DNA from: Candidatus Rokuibacteriota bacterium
GTDB lineage: Bacteria; Methylomirabilota; Methylomirabilia; Rokubacteriales; CSP1-6
Direction of reading: 5' to 3'
NCBI GenBank assembly: GCA_016184305.1
Contig: JACPCX010000114.1
Span: 1-21,723, forward strand
Length of the DNA stretch: 21,723 bases
Shown: positions 2,625 to 10,264 of the stretch, in pieces
Layout of the letters: the number at the start of each line of letters is the position of its first letter
Position numbering within the stretch: position 1 is the stretch's first letter
The notes under the pieces: model-generated
Told to the model about the DNA's origin: nothing
Database searches by the model: none
What the model saw: only the letters and a program-made list of their open reading frames with translations
Translations under genes and position numbers: made by a program

Positions 2625-3134
2625 ATGGCTGGAAAGATCGCGAGCGAGCTCAAGGCCAAGACCGACGAGAGCTGGGCCACCCTGACCGGCCAGCTCCAGG
2701 GCATGGAGCCCCACCTGGAGCGGTCCGACGCGCCCGGCGAGTGGACCACCCGCCAGGTGCTCTGCCATCTCCTGTTCGAGCCGGGCTGGCAGCCCGCGGA
2801 CTTCCTCAGGCAGTTCTCCGAGCGCGATCTGCCCCACCGCGAGATCGTGCCCGGCCTGGCGGACGTGACGCCCGAGCGCAAGACGATGACCCTCACGCAG
2901 CTCACCGACGCCCTCGACGCCCAGCGGCGTGCCATCTTCGCCTACGTGGACACGCTCAGCGACGCCGAGCTCCAGGGCCGGAAGGCCCGCATCCCGCTCT
3001 TCAAGCAGATCCAGGGCAGCGAGGAGGTCCCCATCGCCGTCTATGTCGGCGCGCTCTTCGGCTACCACTGGGCCGACCACGCCGGGCAGCTCGCGAAGAT
3101 CCGCAAGGCGGCAGGCCTGGCGGACGCGACGTAG
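2625..3134 (+). CDS. DinB/YfiT-like four-helix metalloprotein (DinB_2/MDMPI_N family)
   Basis: GEWTTRQVLCHLL and HWADHAGQL supply the family's three-His metal site; GGAGG RBS upstream. Confidence 0.8.
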   Translation: MAGKIASELKAKTDESWATLTGQLQGMEPHLERSDAPGEWTTRQVLCHLLFEPGWQPADFLRQFSERDLPHREIVPGLADVTPERKTMTLTQLTDALDAQRRAIFAYVDTLSDAELQGRKARIPLFKQIQGSEEVPIAVYVGALFGYHWADHAGQLAKIRKAAGLADAT

Positions 3135-3422: not shown

Positions 3423-3650
3423 ATGCGGATCACGAGCAAGGGGCAGGTGACGATTCCGCTGGCCATTCGACGTAAGGCCGGGCTCTTGCCGGCGACCGAG
3501 GTGGAGTTCCACCTGCGGGGGCACACCGTCGTTCTTCGCAGAGCAAGGACCACCGGAAGGCGGGGCGGCCGCCTCCTGGATTCCATGCGAGGAAGGGCCA
3601 CCACCCGGCTGACCACCGACCAGATCATGGCCCTGACGCGCCCCCGGTAG
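3423..3650 (+). CDS. vapB: AbrB/MazE/SpoVT-family antitoxin (VapB)
   Basis: MRITSKGQVTIPLAIRRKAGL swapped-hairpin signature; GGGAGG RBS; directly upstream of a PIN toxin. Confidence 0.9.
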   Translation: MRITSKGQVTIPLAIRRKAGLLPATEVEFHLRGHTVVLRRARTTGRRGGRLLDSMRGRATTRLTTDQIMALTRPR

Positions 3651-3659
3651 ACCGGCCTC

Positions 3660-4064
3660 ATGCGCGAGATCCTCGTCGACAGCAACGTCATTCTCGACGT
3701 TGTGACGGAGGACACGACGTGGTTCGAGTGGTCATCGGGGCAGATCGCGCGCCTGGCCGAAGACCATGTGCTCGTGATCAATCCCATCGTGTACTCCGAG
3801 GTCTCGGTCGGCTTCGAGCGCATCGAGGAGGTCGACTCTGCGCTGCCGGTAGACTTCTTCCGGCGGGAAGCCCTGCCCTGGGAGGCGGCGTTCCTGGCGG
3901 CCAAGTGTTTCCTGAGATATCGGCGGGCGGGCGGCCGGAAGCGCTCTCCACTCCCCGACTTCTACGTGGGAGCCCACGCGGCGGTACGCGGACTGCCGCT
4001 CCTCACACGCGATGCGCGGCGCTACCGCACCTACTTCCCGAGGCTGACGCTGGTCGCGCCCTGA
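3660..4064 (+). CDS. vapC: PIN-domain ribonuclease toxin (VapC)
   Basis: ILVDSNV, YSEV, LPDFYVGAHA and LLTRD carry the PIN acidic residues; 134 aa. Confidence 0.92.
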   Translation: MREILVDSNVILDVVTEDTTWFEWSSGQIARLAEDHVLVINPIVYSEVSVGFERIEEVDSALPVDFFRREALPWEAAFLAAKCFLRYRRAGGRKRSPLPDFYVGAHAAVRGLPLLTRDARRYRTYFPRLTLVAP

Positions 4065-4212: not shown

Positions 4213-4551
4213 TCAAGCGCCCCGGACGCCGTTATCCTCCGCCGCAACCGGGGAGAGGGACTCTGCCGTGGACAGCGCGCGCGCCGCATCGAGCGTCCGG
4301 CCGGCGGCCAGGAGCGCGAGGACGTGGAGGCGCCGGCCTCGGGGCGTGGCGTGAAGACGGCACGCGGCGCCGGCCAGCCCGCACGCGTCAGGCCCGCGGC
4401 CGGCTTCGAGCGCCGCGCGCCCGGCCTCGCGGAGTTGCCAGGCCCGGGCCGCCACGCCCATGAGCGGGGCGAGGTCCGTCCCGCAGCGTGGGCACGCGCT
4501 CACGCCACGCCAGGGCGCGCGACAGGTGGGGCAGCGCAGGGGCTCGCTCAC
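4213..4551 (-). CDS. Small Zn-ribbon (CPTC-x9-CPRC) plus TPR-like helical protein, last gene of the Hsp70 operon
   Basis: MSEPLRCPTCRAPWRGVSACPRCGTDL followed by Ala/Leu-rich amphipathic helices; 16-nt G-rich gap after the Hsp70 stop. Confidence 0.75.
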   Translation of the reverse strand: MSEPLRCPTCRAPWRGVSACPRCGTDLAPLMGVAARAWQLREAGRAALEAGRGPDACGLAGAACRLHATPRGRRLHVLALLAAGRTLDAARALSTAESLSPVAAEDNGVRGA

Positions 4552-4567
4552 CCCGCCCCCCCCTCGC

Positions 4568-6487
4568 TCATCCTTCCTCGACGTAGAAGAGGAGGTCTGC
4601 CAGGTCGGCGGTGGCCGCGCGGAGCCTGTCCCAGTCCCCGCCGCTGATCGCCTTGTCGATCGCCTGCTGGAACATCACCGCCTCCTCGCGGTCCTCGGCG
4701 CTCATCCGGTCGTGGAGGCGGTGGCCCCGCTCGAGCAACGCGCGTGCCTCGGAGATCGAGACCCGTCGCTCGCGCTCGCCGCCGATCTCGTGCCCGGAGG
4801 ATCGGTCCCCGGCATCCGAGCGACGCCCGCGTTCGGTCTCGTCCGCGCGTCCGGCGGCGGGCCGGGATGAGCGACCGGCCGGAGCGGCCGGAGCCTCGGC
4901 GATGCCCGCGGCGTCGTCGACATCAGTGTCGTCGACATCGTCCTCGTCGAGGTCGGCCGGGGCGAGATTCTCGGCATCGCCGAAGAGGTTCAGCATGCGG
5001 CGCCGGGCTTCCGCGACCTGAGCGTCCGTCATCGCGGTCGTCGCGCCCTCGATGGTGATGTGCTTGGCGAGTCCGGTCCGCTTCTCGGTGGCCGTCACGC
5101 GCAGGATGCCGTCGAGGTCGAGATCCAGGCGGCAGAGGACCTCGTTGCCGGCGGGGACGGCCGAGAGCCCCTCGATCAGGAAGCGGCCGACCAGGATATT
5201 GTTGAGGGCGTTGGGATCGTCGCCCTGGTAGACGGACACCTGCCACGCCTCCTGGTTGTCGGCCATGGTGACATACGTGTCGGTCCGGCTGGCGGGGAAC
5301 GGCGTGTTGCGGGCGATGACCGGATGGTAGCAGTGCTCGGACGGCCGGCCGCCGAGGAGGCCGAAGTACGAGGGCCCGAACGAGTAGGGAGAGATGTCAA
5401 CGAGGACGCGGTCGATGTCGTGGCCGCCGAGGCGAGCGGCCAGCACGCCGGCCCCGAGGGCGACGCAGAGGTCGGGGTGAACCTCCTGGCGCGGGACCAG
5501 ACCCGTCTTCTCGCGCAGCAGCTCGGACAGAAGCGGCGTCCGGGTGGCGCCACCGACCAGCAGGATCTCGTCGACCTGATCGGGCTGCTTGCCGGCGTCG
5601 GCCAGGGCCCGGTGCACGCTGTCGAGCGTGCTCTCGACCAGGTGGCGGATCAGGCGCTCGTACTCCTCGCGCGACACCTCCAGGTCGAGGTGCACGGGCA
5701 CCCCGTCGCGCACGGCCAGATGCTCCTCCCTGAGGCGCGTGTAGGGCTCGAAGCTGAGCCGCTTCTTGGCCTCCTCGGCCGCGCGCAGGAGGCGGCTCAT
5801 CGCCCGGCGGTCGTCGCGGACGTCGGGGCCTCCGGTCGCGACGAACCGGGCGAGGACGAGGTCGAGCAGGAGCTGATCGAAATCGTCGCCGCCCAGGCGG
5901 TTATTGCCGTGGCTCGCGAGGACCTCGGTCACGTCGCCGGAGACCTGCACGAGGGACACGTCGAACGTGCCGCCGCCCAGGTCGTAGACCAGCACGGTGC
6001 GGTCGCCCTCGCGATCGGAGCCGTAGGCGAGCGCCGCCGCCGTCGGCTCGTTGAGGATGCGCACGACCTCGAGGCCCGCGATCTCGCCGGCGTCGCGGGT
6101 GGCCTGGCGCTGAGCGTCCGAGAAGTAGGCGGGCACCGTGATCACCGCCCGGCGCACCGGCGCGCCGAGCACTGCCTCGGCCCGGGCCTTGAGGGCGCGC
6201 AGGATCATCGCCGAGATCTCCGGCGGCGAGTACGTCGGCCCGCCCATGGCGACGCGCTCGCCGGAGCCCATCAGCCGCTTGATCGACTTGACGGTCCGCT
6301 CGGGATAGATCACGTATTGGTTGCGGGCCGGGGTGCCGACCAGCGGCGTGCCGTCGGGCGAGAGCCCCACGAACGAGGGCATGATCTGCTCGCCGTCGGC
6401 GGCGAGCACCTGGACATTGCCGTCCACGAGCGCCGCCACCTCGGAGTTCGTCGTCCCCAGATCGATCCCGACGATCACGTCAGCCAT
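4568..6487 (-). CDS. Hsp70 family chaperone, divergent DnaK paralog (639 aa)
   Basis: GIDLGTTNS, SIKRLMG, TVPAYF, RILNEPTAAA, YDLGGGTFDVS, LGGDDFD, LVGGATRTP, DNQ...VYQG. Start is ATG 6487 (MADVIVG), overlapping the grpE stop. Confidence 0.95.
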   Translation of the reverse strand: MADVIVGIDLGTTNSEVAALVDGNVQVLAADGEQIMPSFVGLSPDGTPLVGTPARNQYVIYPERTVKSIKRLMGSGERVAMGGPTYSPPEISAMILRALKARAEAVLGAPVRRAVITVPAYFSDAQRQATRDAGEIAGLEVVRILNEPTAAALAYGSDREGDRTVLVYDLGGGTFDVSLVQVSGDVTEVLASHGNNRLGGDDFDQLLLDLVLARFVATGGPDVRDDRRAMSRLLRAAEEAKKRLSFEPYTRLREEHLAVRDGVPVHLDLEVSREEYERLIRHLVESTLDSVHRALADAGKQPDQVDEILLVGGATRTPLLSELLREKTGLVPRQEVHPDLCVALGAGVLAARLGGHDIDRVLVDISPYSFGPSYFGLLGGRPSEHCYHPVIARNTPFPASRTDTYVTMADNQEAWQVSVYQGDDPNALNNILVGRFLIEGLSAVPAGNEVLCRLDLDLDGILRVTATEKRTGLAKHITIEGATTAMTDAQVAEARRRMLNLFGDAENLAPADLDEDDVDDTDVDDAAGIAEAPAAPAGRSSRPAAGRADETERGRRSDAGDRSSGHEIGGERERRVSISEARALLERGHRLHDRMSAEDREEAVMFQQAIDKAISGGDWDRLRAATADLADLLFYVEEG

Positions 6488-7430
6488 GGGATTCTCCCGT
6501 TGCCGCCGGCGGATTGCCGGCGACCTTGACCTCGGCAAAACGGAGCACCCTGCCATCGGCGGTGTAGCCCGGGCGGAACACCTCGAGCACCGTTCCCGCT
6601 GATGCCGCGGGGGTGGCCGCCACCTCCACCGCCCGCATTACCCGCGGGTCGAACGGCTTGCCCAGGGATGGGATCTCGTGGACGTCGAGCCGCTGGAGCG
6701 CGTCGTCGAGCCGCTCGAGCGCGAGCCCGTTGCCCTCGACCAGCGCCTCGAGCACGGGACGCTGCCCGAAGCGCGCCCGGAGCCCGCGGAGCCCGGCCAG
6801 CCGGCGGCGGGCCTCCTCGAGCCCGCGCGTGAAGCGATCGCGCACCTCCAGCAGCTCGGCCACCAGCTCGAGCCGCGCCTCGCGCCGGGCCTCGGCGAGC
6901 TTCTTCGCGACGGCATCCGGACTGCTGACACTCTCGGCGAGACGCGTGAGCGCTGCGCCGAGCTCGGCGTGCAGGCGATTGGTGGCGCGGCCCTGGAGCT
7001 GCGTCTCGCGGGTCAGCGCGGCGAGCTGGGCCAGCAGCGAGAACAGATCGGGGACCTGCTCGGGAGCCGGCATCGCCTCGGGCGCGAGCCCAGGAGGCGG
7101 CGGTTCCGCCTCGTCCAGCTCGTCGAGCCACGCCACGACCGACTCCAGGAAGACGCGGCGGCGCTCGGGATCGCGCAGGCTTGCGGGGCGACGTTCACCG
7201 GGGCCGCTCGCGGGACTCGTCGTCTCCTCTCGCTCTGCGACTGGGTCGGCCCGGCCCTCGTGATCGCTCGCCTCGTGCTGCGGCCCACTCGCGTCTGAGG
7301 GCGTGAAGGAATCGGCGCGTGGAATCTCGGTGAAGGGTGGTGGCTGGGGGAGTCCGAGCGGGGCGACGACCCCTTCGAACGAGCAATCCGGCGCCGCTCC
7401 CTCCGACGTTGACTCCCTCGACTCGCTCAT
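6480..7430 (-). CDS. grpE: GrpE-like nucleotide exchange factor with long N-terminal extension
   Basis: LLEVRDRFTRGL, GKPFDPRVMRAV and VLEVFRPGY..GRVLRFAEVKV match the GrpE helical bundle and beta domain; ATGA overlap with the J-domain gene. Confidence 0.88.
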   Translation of the reverse strand: MSESRESTSEGAAPDCSFEGVVAPLGLPQPPPFTEIPRADSFTPSDASGPQHEASDHEGRADPVAEREETTSPASGPGERRPASLRDPERRRVFLESVVAWLDELDEAEPPPPGLAPEAMPAPEQVPDLFSLLAQLAALTRETQLQGRATNRLHAELGAALTRLAESVSSPDAVAKKLAEARREARLELVAELLEVRDRFTRGLEEARRRLAGLRGLRARFGQRPVLEALVEGNGLALERLDDALQRLDVHEIPSLGKPFDPRVMRAVEVAATPAASAGTVLEVFRPGYTADGRVLRFAEVKVAGNPPAATGESHG

Positions 7431-7717
7431 GACCGGTCACCCCGAAGGACGTCGAGCCACGGGCCCGGGCCGACGTGGCGCCGCTCGTCCGGCATCGCGT
7501 CGAGAAGCGCCTCCAGGCGGTCGAGCGGCGCCGGACCGAACAGCCGTAGCGCGAGGCGGCGCTCCTCGTCACGCACGGCCTCGTAGGCCTCGCGGATGCG
7601 CCGGAATCCCTCCGGGTCGCGGTCGGGCGGCGAGCGCCGGACCGCCGCCAGATAGGCGGCACGCACGGTGTCGTCGTCCGCCATCTCCTCGATCCCGAGC
7701 ACCGCGAACGGGTTCAC
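7427..7717 (-). CDS. Minimal J-domain (DnaJ-like) protein with PPD in place of HPD
   Basis: MNPFAVLGI...VRAAYLAAVRRSPPDRDPEGFRRIREAYEAV is the J-domain helix I-III pattern; 96 aa; GTGA overlap with the upstream gene. Confidence 0.85.
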   Translation of the reverse strand: MNPFAVLGIEEMADDDTVRAAYLAAVRRSPPDRDPEGFRRIREAYEAVRDEERRLALRLFGPAPLDRLEALLDAMPDERRHVGPGPWLDVLRGDRS

Positions 7718-10161
7718 GGGTTCTTCTCCAGGAAGGCGAGGAAGTCGTCAAACAGGTCTCGCTGCGGCCATCGTGGCGCCCGCCGCCGCTTGCGCCGCGC
7801 CTTCTCGGCCGTGAAGGTGGGCACCTGCCGGTGCGCGCGCTCGGCCGTGACAAGCCGCGCGATTTCCACCGTCGTCAGTGGCTCCATGTCAGCGACCGGC
7901 ACGGGCGGGGCCCAGGGAGCGGTGTCGGGCGAGCGCGCGAGGGCGTCGATCCCGGACGAGGCCTCGCGCACGGCGTCCATGTCGCGCGCGCGGCCGGCCA
8001 GCTCGCGCGCGGCACGCAGGCAGAGCGCGGCACGGTCGCGATCGCGACGCGACGCGGCGGCCGAGAGCGCGCGGCCACGCGCGAGGAGAAAACGGTGGAG
8101 CAGGGGCCCATCGCCGGCGAGCCCCTCCCCGGAGGCGGCGTAGGTCAGGGCCGGCCGGCCCATGTGGAGCCCGCCGACGCACAGCGAGTGAAGATCGGCG
8201 GGAGCAGCGCCGCTGAGGTCACGTTCGACCCGGGCAAGCAGGGCCGGTGGCACGGCGAGGGGGCGATCCAGCGCGCGAAACAGGTCACCCGAGCGGGCCA
8301 GCGCCTGGACGGTCTCGGCCGGCGAGGCCGGATCGGGCGCGTCGGGCGGCGGCTCGAGCCCGAACGACTCGGCCACCGACGACAAGATCAACGCGAGCAT
8401 CGTGGGGTTCCCGAGCCGTGACGCCAGCTCCTCGTGCAGCCGCACGGCGGCGGCCCCGTCGCCGTTCCGGCGCGTCGCCACCGACCGGACCGCGCCGAGA
8501 TATGCCGAGGTGTCACCGCTCGTCGCGACCGGCTCCTTCTCCAGGCGGTCGAGATCAGCCAGGGCGAGCGCGAACCGGCCTTCCCGGATCCGTCGCTCCG
8601 CGCTGGCGAGGAGCAGCCGGAAGCGGCTCTGCCGCACCTCGGGGTGCACCCGGTTGATCGCCTCGGCGAGGTCGAGCAGGTCGAGCGCCTTCCGGTGGGC
8701 GCCGCGCCGCTCGGCCGCGCGCACCAGGTGCAGCAGCGGCTCCAGGTCCCGCGGGTGCGCCTGCCGCCACGCTTCGGCCAGGGCCTCCGCCTGCCGGGGG
8801 TCGCGCGTCTCCCAGTGCGCGACGAGCGCCTGAAACACGCGCGGATCGGGATCGGCCTGGCGCGCGCGTGCCAGGAGACGGCCGCGGTCGACCCACTCCG
8901 GAAGCTCGCCGTCCCGGACCAGCGCCTCGAGCTCCTCCTCGGAGTCGACCTCGAACGTGTCGAGCACTTCCGCGCGATCGGCCGGGAACAGCTCGGCCAT
9001 GTGCAGAAGGACGCGCGACGGCGCGCGCCCCGCCGCGAGCAGGGTGCCGGCGCGAATCGCGGCCATGAGGTAGGCGTCCCAGGAGATGAGCGCCTCCTCC
9101 CACGCCCCCGCGCGCTCCAGCGTGAGGGCGATCAGCCGCTGCGTTTCGCGCTGCCAGTCGAGGTTGCGCCGGTCCCGGCGCAATGCCTCGATCAGGGGCT
9201 TGAGATTCAGGTTCAGCCGATACCAGTGCTGGAGCACCGTGGCCGTGAAGATCCGCTTGACTGGCACAGGCTCGAAGTCGAACAAGGGCATGATGCGCTC
9301 GACGGCGGCGACCGCAGTCCGCGGATCCCTCGCCTCGAGCGCGCGGCCGAGGCGCAGCAGGTGCTGCCGGAGCAGGGTCCGCCCCCCGCTGACGGCCCTG
9401 ATCAAGGCACCGACTGCGGGCGATCGCTGATCCAGCGCCCCGGGCTCTCCGATCAGATGACGCAGCACGGGCACGAGCCGCGCCGGGGCGGCGTGCGGCG
9501 GAATCGCATCGAGATTGGCGAGCGCCACGCCGTCCGCGCGCCGGTAGTACGCGTCGAGCGCCCGGATCAGGAGCTTCCATGGCGCCAGCGGCGAGTGACG
9601 CGAGACCTGGTCCAGGGCGGCGAGGGCGCCGTCGGGCAAGGGGCCGCTCGTCACCGCGGCGAACAGGTCACACACCGCCCGCGCGGCGCGCCGCAGTGGC
9701 TCGTCGGCGGCCAGCGCGTCAGCGTCGGCAAGCAGGCGTGGGTCCCGGAGCTCCCGCGTCAGGATCGCTTCGATCTCCTGCCGGCGCGGCCGGGCGGCCG
9801 CCGCCAGCTCCGCCAGGAGCGGCCGGAGGTCGCCGGCGGCGATCGCCTTGCTCTGGCGCACGAGCGGCACGATGCGGTGGCGGTGTGCCGGGAACCGCTC
9901 GCCGACGAGCGCGGCCAGCGCCGTCGCCTCGTCGTACAGGCCCTGCGCGAGCATCTCGCCGATGCGCGCCTCGTAGGCGGCGATGACGAGCGCCTCGGCC
10001 TCGGTGCTCCGCGCCTCCTTGAAGAATTGCTTGGCGAGGTCGAGCGCCCCCCGCGTGTTGCCGGAGGCGATCAGGGATTCGACGCGAACCCGTGACTCCC
10101 CGGGACTCGTGAGGGGCTGGACCGGCCGGTGATGGGATGGGCGCTTGTCACGTTTGCTCAT
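7714..10161 (-). CDS. Large all-helical, TPR-like hypothetical protein (815 aa), first gene of the Hsp70 operon
   Basis: Long ORF of Ala/Leu/Arg-rich amphipathic helices (e.g. ALDLLDLAEAINRVHP, ALADLDRLE); AGGAG RBS before ATG 10161; stop overlaps the J-protein start. No recognisable catalytic motif. Confidence 0.8.
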   Translation of the reverse strand: MSKRDKRPSHHRPVQPLTSPGESRVRVESLIASGNTRGALDLAKQFFKEARSTEAEALVIAAYEARIGEMLAQGLYDEATALAALVGERFPAHRHRIVPLVRQSKAIAAGDLRPLLAELAAAARPRRQEIEAILTRELRDPRLLADADALAADEPLRRAARAVCDLFAAVTSGPLPDGALAALDQVSRHSPLAPWKLLIRALDAYYRRADGVALANLDAIPPHAAPARLVPVLRHLIGEPGALDQRSPAVGALIRAVSGGRTLLRQHLLRLGRALEARDPRTAVAAVERIMPLFDFEPVPVKRIFTATVLQHWYRLNLNLKPLIEALRRDRRNLDWQRETQRLIALTLERAGAWEEALISWDAYLMAAIRAGTLLAAGRAPSRVLLHMAELFPADRAEVLDTFEVDSEEELEALVRDGELPEWVDRGRLLARARQADPDPRVFQALVAHWETRDPRQAEALAEAWRQAHPRDLEPLLHLVRAAERRGAHRKALDLLDLAEAINRVHPEVRQSRFRLLLASAERRIREGRFALALADLDRLEKEPVATSGDTSAYLGAVRSVATRRNGDGAAAVRLHEELASRLGNPTMLALILSSVAESFGLEPPPDAPDPASPAETVQALARSGDLFRALDRPLAVPPALLARVERDLSGAAPADLHSLCVGGLHMGRPALTYAASGEGLAGDGPLLHRFLLARGRALSAAASRRDRDRAALCLRAARELAGRARDMDAVREASSGIDALARSPDTAPWAPPVPVADMEPLTTVEIARLVTAERAHRQVPTFTAEKARRKRRRAPRWPQRDLFDDFLAFLEKNP

Positions 10162-10234: not shown

Positions 10235-10264
10235 ATTATGGGGTCGAAGGCGCCACCTTGTCTA
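10235..10264 (-). promoter_or_regulatory. Candidate sigma70-type promoter of the Hsp70 operon
   Basis: Minus strand TAGACA (10264-10259), 18 nt, CATAAT (10240-10235), followed by a GATTCCC...GGGAATC inverted repeat (10202-10229) in the leader. Confidence 0.5.

Follow-up and report, generated by a model that had tools for sequence, protein, structure and literature searches.

A conserved five-gene operon with its own Hsp70, J-domain protein and GrpE, and a predicted two-part TPR/J co-chaperone, in Candidatus Rokuibacteriota

Results and discussion

A tightly packed five-gene operon

We analysed a stretch of 21,723 nucleotides (nt) from Candidatus Rokuibacteriota bacterium (assembly GCA_016184305.1, contig JACPCX010000114.1, positions 1 to 21,723; G+C content 72%), hereafter the window. 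Its minus strand carries, from 4213 to 10161, a run of five genes that encode a solenoid resembling tetratricopeptide repeat (TPR) proteins, a protein with a J-domain, a GrpE, an Hsp70 and a small protein that combines a zinc ribbon with a mini-TPR. This cassette had been proposed, from a first inspection of the DNA (the original prediction), to be a self-contained Hsp70 system. In the order of transcription the genes are as follows.

7714-10161, minus strand: scaffold TPR815, 815 amino acids (aa), open reading frame (ORF) from an ATG at 10161
7427-7717, minus strand: J-protein J96, 96 aa, ORF with a Pfam DnaJ match
6480-7430, minus strand: GrpE, 316 aa, ORF with a Pfam GrpE match
4568-6487, minus strand: Hsp70, 639 aa, ORF with a Pfam HSP70 match
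4213-4551, minus strand: Zn112, 112 aa, ORF outside the Pfam families, with a GTG start at 4551

The analysis confirmed that these genes form a real, tightly packed operon, and the predicted strand, coordinates and overlaps were all exact. The scaffold and J96 genes share a GTGA overlap (7714-7717), J96 and GrpE an ATGA overlap (7427-7430), and GrpE and Hsp70 overlap by 8 nt (6480-6487), while a G-rich gap of 16 nt (4552-4567) separates Hsp70 from Zn112. The longest ORF of the scaffold gene would begin at 10236; we place the start at 10161 because homologues of 814-815 aa cover 100% of the protein from that start, and because a sigma-70-like site lies at 10264-10235. Neither the scaffold nor Zn112 matches any Pfam family.

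The operon is separate from the housekeeping chaperones of its genome

The host assembly (3.2 Mb in 239 contigs, 88.8% complete) contains four HSP70 matches (881, 700, 448 and 41.5 bits), the one with 448 bits being the cassette gene, as well as two GrpE and six DnaJ matches. The canonical DnaK (881 bits) is located on another contig with an adjoining J-protein, and there is a separate grpE-dnaJ pair (GrpE 147 bits, DnaJ 104 bits). The cassette is thus set apart from the housekeeping DnaK, as had been predicted, and its Hsp70 is not the only DnaK of the genome. Against the DnaK equivalog models the cassette Hsp70 remains under the cut-offs (491 against 648 for NF001413, 482.6 against 822.55 for TIGR02350), as it does against the NCBIfam HscA equivalog (394 against 620), and the cassette GrpE falls below the cut-off of all 22 NCBIfam models that it matched, 21 of which are GrpE equivalogs. 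These scores, together with the better DnaK, GrpE and DnaJ elsewhere in the genome, rule out that the cassette is the housekeeping dnaK operon.

The third Hsp70 of the genome (700 bits; locus L002, G000:C18:7705-10036) is without the GrpE-signature loop and has 50% identity to Escherichia coli HscA. A gene with a weak J-domain (34.5 bits) lies directly upstream of it, and the two are probably an HscA-HscB pair, in which case the genome has three Hsp70 systems.

The cassette and the housekeeping DnaK-DnaJ-GrpE set have the same three functional parts, with the catalytic and allosteric Hsp70 residues intact and a GrpE-type exchange factor kept in the cassette. They differ in that the cassette has neither a class A/B DnaJ architecture nor an HPD motif, adds two conserved genes, and shows no match to CIRCE (controlling inverted repeat of chaperone expression). 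The predicted deviation of all three chaperone parts from the housekeeping forms is borne out by the sub-cut-off scores, the PPD motif of J96 and the insertions and deletions of the Hsp70.

The cassette is conserved as a unit and patchily distributed

A pattern scan over one genome per species gave 49 related loci, all of them in metagenome-assembled genomes. Their taxon labels (Rokubacteria/Methylomirabilota, Binatia, Nitrospinota, 'Deltaproteobacteria', Hydrogenedentota, Planctomycetota, Gemmatimonadales and Chloroflexi, with Acidobacteriota also present as three separate clades) place the cassette in about eight phylum-level groups. The order scaffold, J, GrpE, Hsp70, zinc ribbon is kept in all 39 loci with a full cassette (tblastn, and phmmer on ORFs), and the remaining 10 of the 49 stop at a contig end or a scaffold gap or are disrupted by frameshifts, with the expected genes up to the break. 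Most scaffold/J junctions in these loci are 4-nt overlaps. There is no conserved sixth gene: no flanking ORF family is found in more than eight loci, and the shared ones lie on inconsistent sides.

Within the phylum of the window, the scaffold occurs in 10 of 251 genomes (4 of the 104 of high quality) and a cassette-type Hsp70 (E<=1e-150) in 8 of 251, all eight of which belong to the scaffold's ten. The two remaining scaffold genomes carry a frameshifted copy and a contig-end fragment, respectively. Gene order is conserved in 39 of 39 loci, the distribution is patchy (10 of 251), and the genes for the 815-aa and zinc-ribbon proteins travel with the J/GrpE/Hsp70 trio, not apart from it, in agreement with what the original prediction had assumed.

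In the Hsp70 tree the 39 cassette proteins form one clade with a Shimodaira-Hasegawa-like approximate likelihood ratio test (SH-aLRT) value of 99, and its topology disagrees with the phylum labels; Hsp70 identity across the related loci is 50-97%. One Rokubacteria contig (CAVXVV010000055.1) carries the cassette twice, about 25 kb apart, in the loci L007 (474873-497311) and L008 (500320-522758). The copies share 98.1% identity across 5,919 nt, a span that starts some 130 nt ahead of the first gene and stops some 110 nt past the last; their flanks are unrelated. Each copy shows a shift of the Hsp70 reading frame within the acidic linker, either through long-read indel errors or as a real feature. 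We consider it probable that the cassette has spread horizontally as a unit. Two bins, those of L014 and L019, are labelled Enterobacteriaceae and Klebsiella pneumoniae; these labels look wrong because their cassette genes nest among 'Deltaproteobacteria' bins.

A J-domain with a fixed non-HPD motif

The following features define J96 and the part of the scaffold to which it is predicted to bind.

7622-7630, minus strand: PPD in place of HPD, at the motif position of J96
7436-7567, minus strand: conserved C-terminal extension of J96, residues 51-94, the scaffold-contacting part in the complex prediction
9001-9747, minus strand: scaffold residues 139-387, predicted docking surface for the J96 tail

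J96 matches Pfam DnaJ with 32.8 bits (cut-off 27.8) and has the J-domain fold, but none of 46 copies carries HPD: 43 have PPD and 3 have PPE instead, in a family in which identity falls to 34%. The C-terminal half of the protein is also conserved, with G83 and W87 invariant. The J-domains of the HscC partners DjlB (37.8 bits) and DjlC (31.5 bits) of E. coli align with the J96 family profile without a gap, also across the short loop behind the motif, whereas an alignment with DnaJ requires a 6-residue gap. J96 thus shows, as DjlB/DjlC-type J-domains do, a short loop between helices II and III and D-P-(Q/E)-G-F as its continuation. At 96 aa it is not a tail-anchored membrane protein of about 480 aa, as DjlB and DjlC are. 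In DjlB and DjlC the motif is HPE (PMC10410713; PMC13254874).

A TPR-like scaffold on which J96 is predicted to dock

The AlphaFold2 model of the scaffold (predicted local distance difference test (pLDDT) 85.4, predicted template modelling score (pTM) 0.58) consists of about 40 helices. Its best Foldseek matches are the TPR scaffolds Ski3, Ctr9, anaphase-promoting complex (APC) subunits, Prp6 and intraflagellar transport (IFT) proteins, with E from 1.9e-6; the template modelling (TM) scores are low (0.12-0.24 by query), which is expected because solenoids are flexible. A word-index search returned 161 relatives, and the best 120 are nearly all of 800-830 aa; the names among the 120 listed reach at most 'hypothetical' or 'TPR repeat protein'. 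Searched against 1.84 billion cluster representatives, the scaffold profile matched 2367 clusters, counted at 50% identity, with a limit of E<=1e-3; stricter limits of 1e-10 and 1e-30 left 1575 and 619, respectively, and most of the best 150 matches are near full length. In the ESM Atlas the scaffold and Zn112 return only unnamed clusters. The scaffold family is therefore large, widespread and without a name.

The complex prediction for the scaffold and J96 scored 0.75, 0.75 and 0.76 in three runs, and the best of three controls scored 0.00. In the calibration of the tool, 116 of 157 solved complexes and 2 of 215 mismatched pairs attained the mark used, counts that are only rough here, custom alignments having been used. 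The runs share at least 91% of their contacts, with a partner pLDDT of at least 82. J96 residues 51-94 are predicted to lie along the concave face of scaffold residues 139-387 (135-139 contacts), and the J-domain stays outside the predicted interface except for J96 residues 2, 4-5 and 11. The scaffold residues in this interface that are at least 90% conserved are D140, F167, T171, G173, R228, L229, L268, L271, R342 and H387. To our knowledge no solved complex of this kind exists, and for that reason a prediction drawn from memorised structures is unlikely. The models thus suggest that the C-terminal extension of J96 docks on the scaffold.

The two proteins are encoded as separate polypeptides. 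Pfam DnaJ is found in 0 of 49 long representatives of the scaffold family (948-1024 aa), and the J96 family profile has no match among the 264 proteins scanned with it. The loci L009, L026 and L035 have scaffold and J in one ORF; we do not count them as TPR-J fusions because they are long-read assemblies with frameshifts at least in L009.

An Hsp70 of HscC-like architecture that keeps the GrpE loop

The cassette Hsp70 matches Pfam HSP70 with 459 bits over profile positions 1-516 of 599 and comprises a nucleotide-binding domain, a linker, a beta substrate-binding domain and an interrupted lid. Two features belong to this protein and to Zn112.

~4799-4966, minus strand: variable acidic insert in the Hsp70 lid, from the alignment
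4483-4533, minus strand: four cysteines of Zn112, in a zinc-ribbon pattern

The lid insert is followed by a conserved helical end, LLF[YF][VMI]E.., and the protein of the window ends in LLFYVEEG. In an alignment that contains the paralogues of its own genome and DnaK, HscA and HscC of E. coli, the cassette Hsp70 displays a lobe-I deletion (DnaK 76-101), an insertion in loop L1,2 of the beta substrate-binding domain, a strand reading S-P-Y-S-F-G, a helix B and lid that are shortened, and a C-terminus that is likewise short, all of which are HscC-like; the lobe-I deletion, L1,2 insertion, short lid and short C-terminus are listed as HscC features in a review (PMC8215388). At the GrpE-signature position it keeps a loop of DnaK length that is deleted in HscA, in HscC and in the HscA-like paralogue of its own genome. 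The absence of this loop and of an exchange factor, which marks HscC, is thus not shared by the cassette, where the loop is kept and a GrpE gene is present.

The equivalents of K70, P143, D148, R167, N170, T173, E217, D326, D393, P419, D481 and L484 are invariant in all 39 cassette Hsp70s, so that all twelve catalytic and allosteric positions are intact; the roles of these residues follow the same review (PMC8215388). Two other positions are changed. At the equivalent of Q378, 37 of 39 cassette proteins have L or M and all five references have Q, and the linker position 389 is R or K in all 39, compared with V, L or M in the references. In the DnaK-DnaJ structure, Q378 of DnaK is hydrogen-bonded to the aspartate of HPD (PMC8215388).

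The cassette GrpE carries a normal GrpE domain at residues 163-304 (6519-6944; Pfam 84.4 bits), preceded by an N-terminal region whose length varies among relatives. Zn112 keeps the pattern CPxC-x9-CxRCGxDL in 40 of 40 copies, and its model (pLDDT 88.2) consists of a ribbon and four helices. Foldseek gave no match for it at E<=0.001 (best E 0.055). Its helices weakly resemble small three-TPR domains (TM about 0.55 over about 66 columns), and the weak matches include p58IPK as well as several domains solved with C-terminal peptides of Hsp70 or Hsp90. We take this TPR likeness of the modelled fold as a lead only.

The C-terminal tail of the scaffold

7717-7806, minus strand: disordered lysine/arginine (K/R)-rich tail, scaffold residues 786-815, with pLDDT <50 for 786-802
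7750-7764, minus strand: QRDLF, scaffold residues 800-804, with a K/R run before it and an amphipathic acidic helix after it

A K/R-rich C-terminus is present in 96 of 149 representatives of the scaffold family, and at least 25% K/R within the last 40 residues in 81 of 144, for a whole-protein median of 14%. The motif Q..[LMI]F occurs within the last 30 residues of 18 of the 149 (12%), 12 of which end with these five residues, against a background of 24 in 4265 windows of 30 residues (0.6%). The form Qxx(L/M)F corresponds to the docking consensus of the beta sliding clamp. As a feature of the family we reject the clamp motif, which 131 of the 149 representatives do not have and whose Q is often lost in the related loci; the hydrophobic-acidic helix after it is kept there. 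In a Bryobacterales/Terriglobia clade (L036, L039, L040, L042-L048, L050, L051) a cysteine motif, CxCxxCRxxRGE, precedes the K/R run of the tail, and this motif is absent from the clade of the window.

Promoter, regulation and neighbouring genes

10235-10264, minus strand: candidate promoter, TAGACA, 18 nt, CATAAT, matching the sigma-70 consensus at 10 of 12 positions

The operon had been predicted to have its own promoter, and a single sigma-70-like site is indeed found 5' of the first gene, upstream of 10161 and overlapping the alternative start at 10236. It is the sole such site on the minus strand between 3300 and 10800, where 0.1 would be expected in shuffled sequence. The -10 region before the first gene is CCCCATAAT in the window, and CCCCATAAT or CCCCATACT is kept in the nearest relatives; the CCCCAT element is conserved in L005, L006, L007, L008 and L021. 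This -10 element resembles the CCCCAT core of sigma-32 heat-shock promoters. The HrcA family has no match among the 24 window ORFs scanned, and CIRCE, the only heat-shock operator searched for, has none with up to three mismatches to its consensus, which agrees with the predicted absence of both.

The toxin-antitoxin pair that had been noted beside the cassette is present on the plus strand, convergent with it, as a MazE/AbrB-type antitoxin (3423-3650, 28.4 bits) and a PIN toxin (3660-4064, 44.8 bits). The remaining neighbours in the window are genes of acyl-CoA and B12 metabolism. A DinB_2 ORF is found at 2625-3134.

For the related loci we scanned the two nearest ORFs on each side (116 of 130 ORFs in 34 loci, the 14 ORFs of L047-L053 being left out). 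Most of these flanking genes are metabolic or housekeeping, and families of toxin-antitoxin, restriction, defence or transposase type occur in 8 of the 34 loci (10 of the 116 ORFs), from which we claim no enrichment because no background rate was computed. In four related Binatia genomes, the loci L026-L029 have a common region upstream of the cassette with an ABC-transporter auxiliary gene and differ downstream (at about 15.3-19 kb in each locus), where we find genes of defence type: GmrSD with AAA_15/DUF3696, DUF2806 with an M78-HTH regulator, and MazF with an MmeI-like enzyme; this region looks like a variable island beside the cassette.

Proposed mechanism and alternative explanations

The reading that we find likely is that the cassette is an accessory, horizontally spread and self-contained five-gene Hsp70 machine of the HscC-DjlB/DjlC type, which works alongside the housekeeping DnaK-DnaJ-GrpE and uses a two-part TPR/J co-chaperone. 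According to the complex prediction, J96 and the scaffold would form this co-chaperone, with the 45 C-terminal residues of J96 on the concave face and the J-domain left free. The conservation patterns suggest that the free PPD J-domain would trigger ATP hydrolysis in the co-encoded Hsp70 only, and that the J-contact site of this Hsp70 may have been rewired to match PPD through the changes at 378 (to L or M) and 389 (to R or K). Together these changes would insulate the circuit from DnaK and DnaJ, by analogy with HscC and DjlB/DjlC and with HscA and HscB, pairings that a review describes as exclusive (PMC13254874). The private GrpE would reset the Hsp70, in which the loop missing from HscA and HscC is retained. 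The other two thirds of the solenoid and its basic tail may determine on which client or where in the cell the machine acts, and Zn112 could serve as a further adaptor or as an Hsp70 escort.

Several observations weigh against this reading. The split between {two DnaK, two HscA-like} and {HscC, 39 cassette Hsp70s} has an SH-aLRT of 99, but the HscC link in the tree rests on a single HscC with a branch of 4.26 and may reflect long-branch attraction, and in BLAST the cassette Hsp70 scores highest with DnaK (376 and 360 bits) and lower with HscC (296 bits) and HscA (291 bits). With HscC-like insertions and deletions on one side and the long branch and the BLAST scores on the other, we describe the protein as an Hsp70 of HscC-like architecture in a clade of its own, which is not proven to be an HscC. 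Changing the histidine of HPD to glutamine is reported to abolish ATPase stimulation in every system tested (PMC8215388), and the PPD domain could for this reason be a non-stimulating pseudo-J domain. Conserved scaffold residues show no significant enrichment in the modelled interface (10 of 56, compared with 80 of 759; p = 0.12), the score of the scaffold-J96 complex is a model confidence and not a measurement, and our analysis yielded no client for the Hsp70.

The original prediction had favoured the 815-aa protein as the single client of the chaperones. The scaffold would then be the sole dedicated client, held by J96 as HscB holds IscU, and the Hsp70 would grip the basic tail and unfold, disassemble or activate the scaffold, in one version much as Hsc70 and auxilin uncoat clathrin. 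The predicted binding of J96, the disordered K/R-rich tail (81 of 144 representatives with at least 25% K/R) and the lack of any other conserved gene as a client candidate are consistent with this, as is the statement in a review that HscC binds peptides mainly through positive charge (PMC8215388). However, the interface predicted for J96 residues 51-94 is very large, with its 135-139 contacts, and resembles that of a permanent subunit, TPR solenoids of this kind typically hold other proteins, and nothing points to self-assembly of the scaffold. Most of the data agree with this explanation, but because the predicted interface looks constitutive, we rank it second and regard it as unlikely; the complex prediction turns the 815-aa protein into a docking scaffold for J96, a role equally compatible with a client and with a subunit of a co-chaperone. 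The basic tail has also led us to a DNA- or replisome-directed machine, in which the tail would bind DNA and Qxx(L/M)F would dock on the beta sliding clamp. The motif is clearly enriched over the background (18 of 149 against 24 of 4265), and the window protein has QRDLF after a K/R run, but 131 of the 149 representatives are without it, the Q is often lost in the related loci while the hydrophobic-acidic helix stays, and a basic stretch followed by L-F would fit the substrate site of an Hsp70 equally well. This seems to us the least probable of the explanations considered.

The cassette might instead serve in defence against phages or in some other conflict, as a switch gated by its chaperones, which had also been suggested. 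Its patchy occurrence in the phylum (10 of 251 genomes), an Hsp70 tree that crosses phylum labels, the duplication of L007 and L008 as a unit, the defence-type neighbours in 8 of 34 loci and the PIN-antitoxin pair of the window all agree with such a role, and HSP70-GrpE modules occur in GTPase-centred conflict systems (PMC7159879). Yet the cassette matches no system in PADLOC-DB 2.0, where the only hits are weak and partial (MkoB, E 0.0033; PDC-M61B, E 5e-5), and the five proteins contain no nuclease, protease, pore, NADase or other effector domain and have no GTPase partner. The flanks are mostly metabolic or housekeeping, the 8 of 34 loci do not amount to an enrichment, and the proteins are well conserved rather than diversifying (Hsp70 50-97% identity). 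A conflict role is consequently improbable, and the suggestion of an anti-phage switch finds little support here.

For the self-contained Hsp70 machine with its two-part co-chaperone, a bolder version can be formulated. In it PPD would function in place of HPD and would have been positively selected, it would fire only the co-evolved Hsp70 with its R or K at 389 and L or M at 378, and the cassette would be a naturally orthogonal Hsp70/J/GrpE circuit that is built on the very large TPR solenoid and directed at a single cellular site. We offer this version tentatively and consider it less likely than not; DNA or the sliding clamp might be that site, reached through the basic Qxx(L/M)F tail.

Comparison with known chaperone systems

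The closest kin is HscC with DjlB and DjlC (E. coli ybeQ-ybeR-djlB-ybeT-ybeU-djlC-hscC), which likewise combines a specialised Hsp70 with exclusive J-partners encoded adjacent to it. The cassette Hsp70 has the lobe-I deletion, L1,2 insertion, short lid and short C-terminus of HscC, the J-domain of J96 aligns with those of DjlB and DjlC without a gap, both kinds deviate from HPD, and the E. coli locus also encodes TPR-like proteins, of the Sel1 type. The differences are that the cassette has its own GrpE and the GrpE-signature loop, which HscC is without, and that its Hsp70 scores lower with HscC (296 bits) than with DnaK (360-376 bits). J96 changes the histidine of the motif (PPD), whereas DjlB and DjlC change the aspartate (HPE), and it is a soluble protein of 96 aa instead of a tail-anchored one of about 480 aa. 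An 815-aa solenoid stands in place of the small Sel1 proteins, and the cassette has a zinc-ribbon gene and no DUF1266 genes. In L012 two small Sel1-repeat proteins are encoded directly 3' of the cassette (L012:6777-7715); they recall YbeQ and YbeT of the E. coli hscC locus.

The original prediction had held of the specialised Hsp70 loci that it named (HscA-HscB-IscU, HscC-DjlB/DjlC) that they do not encode their own GrpE; precedents for a private GrpE exist elsewhere. In Myxococcus xanthus, SglK (MxDnaK2) is cotranscribed with the GrpE homologue GrpS (10.64898/2026.08.28.747804; PMC11019930). This is similarly a DnaK paralogue with a private GrpE, but the sglK gene has no J-protein gene beside it, and neither a TPR scaffold nor a zinc-ribbon gene is reported there. 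The GAP1-N2 GTPase conflict systems (Kaur et al. 2020, PMC7159879) combine HSP70 and GrpE with a DnaJ- or TPR-fused partner, and thus also bring an HSP70, a GrpE and a J/TPR partner into one neighbourhood. They differ from the cassette, which has no GTPase, FNIII-repeat protein or effector; a TRAFAC GTPase or FNIII-repeat protein was found neither in the cassette, nor among the 24 window ORFs, nor as a conserved neighbour. Among eukaryotes, DNAJC7/TPR2 and DNAJC3/p58IPK join a TPR array to a J-domain and steer Hsp70 in this way (PMC13254874). They share the TPR and J architecture with the cassette, and p58IPK is one of the weak fold matches of Zn112, but TPR and J are two polypeptides in the cassette, joined by prediction, and the likeness is one of architecture and not of demonstrated homology.

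Full-text searches of openly available articles, without their supplements, turned up no description of the five-gene set. The operon therefore matches no system that we found described, and the claim that no characterised system has this gene set stands in that sense; it does not hold in the sense of an isolated case, since it has kin, of which HscC with DjlB/DjlC is the closest. Reviews of 2021 and 2026 distinguish three types of prokaryotic Hsp70 next to many uncharacterised 'DnaK derivates' (PMC8215388; PMC13580251). Three features of the cassette are unusual in this setting: a fixed non-HPD J-domain, a GrpE kept in an HscC-like context, and a very large TPR scaffold for docking, accompanied by a zinc-ribbon protein.

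Implications

The HPD motif is treated as indispensable, and here PPD or PPE is fixed in every copy across several phyla. The HPE of DjlB and DjlC is described as the only tolerated change of HPD, and the 2026 review calls the meaning of other deviations 'enigmatic' (PMC13254874). Because the fixed PPD/PPE of the cassette sits beside a dedicated Hsp70 whose ATPase network is intact and which has a matching change at the contact site, the meaning of such a deviation can be tested with four or five proteins. The scaffold family also marks a blind spot in annotation, with hundreds of clusters at 50% identity that have no Pfam family and no descriptive name in the resources searched. If the cassette is insulated from DnaK, it is a candidate for an orthogonal chaperone module in engineering, and if the PPD circuit that we propose tentatively should be true, these bacteria would possess a counterpart of the eukaryotic TPR-J co-chaperones.

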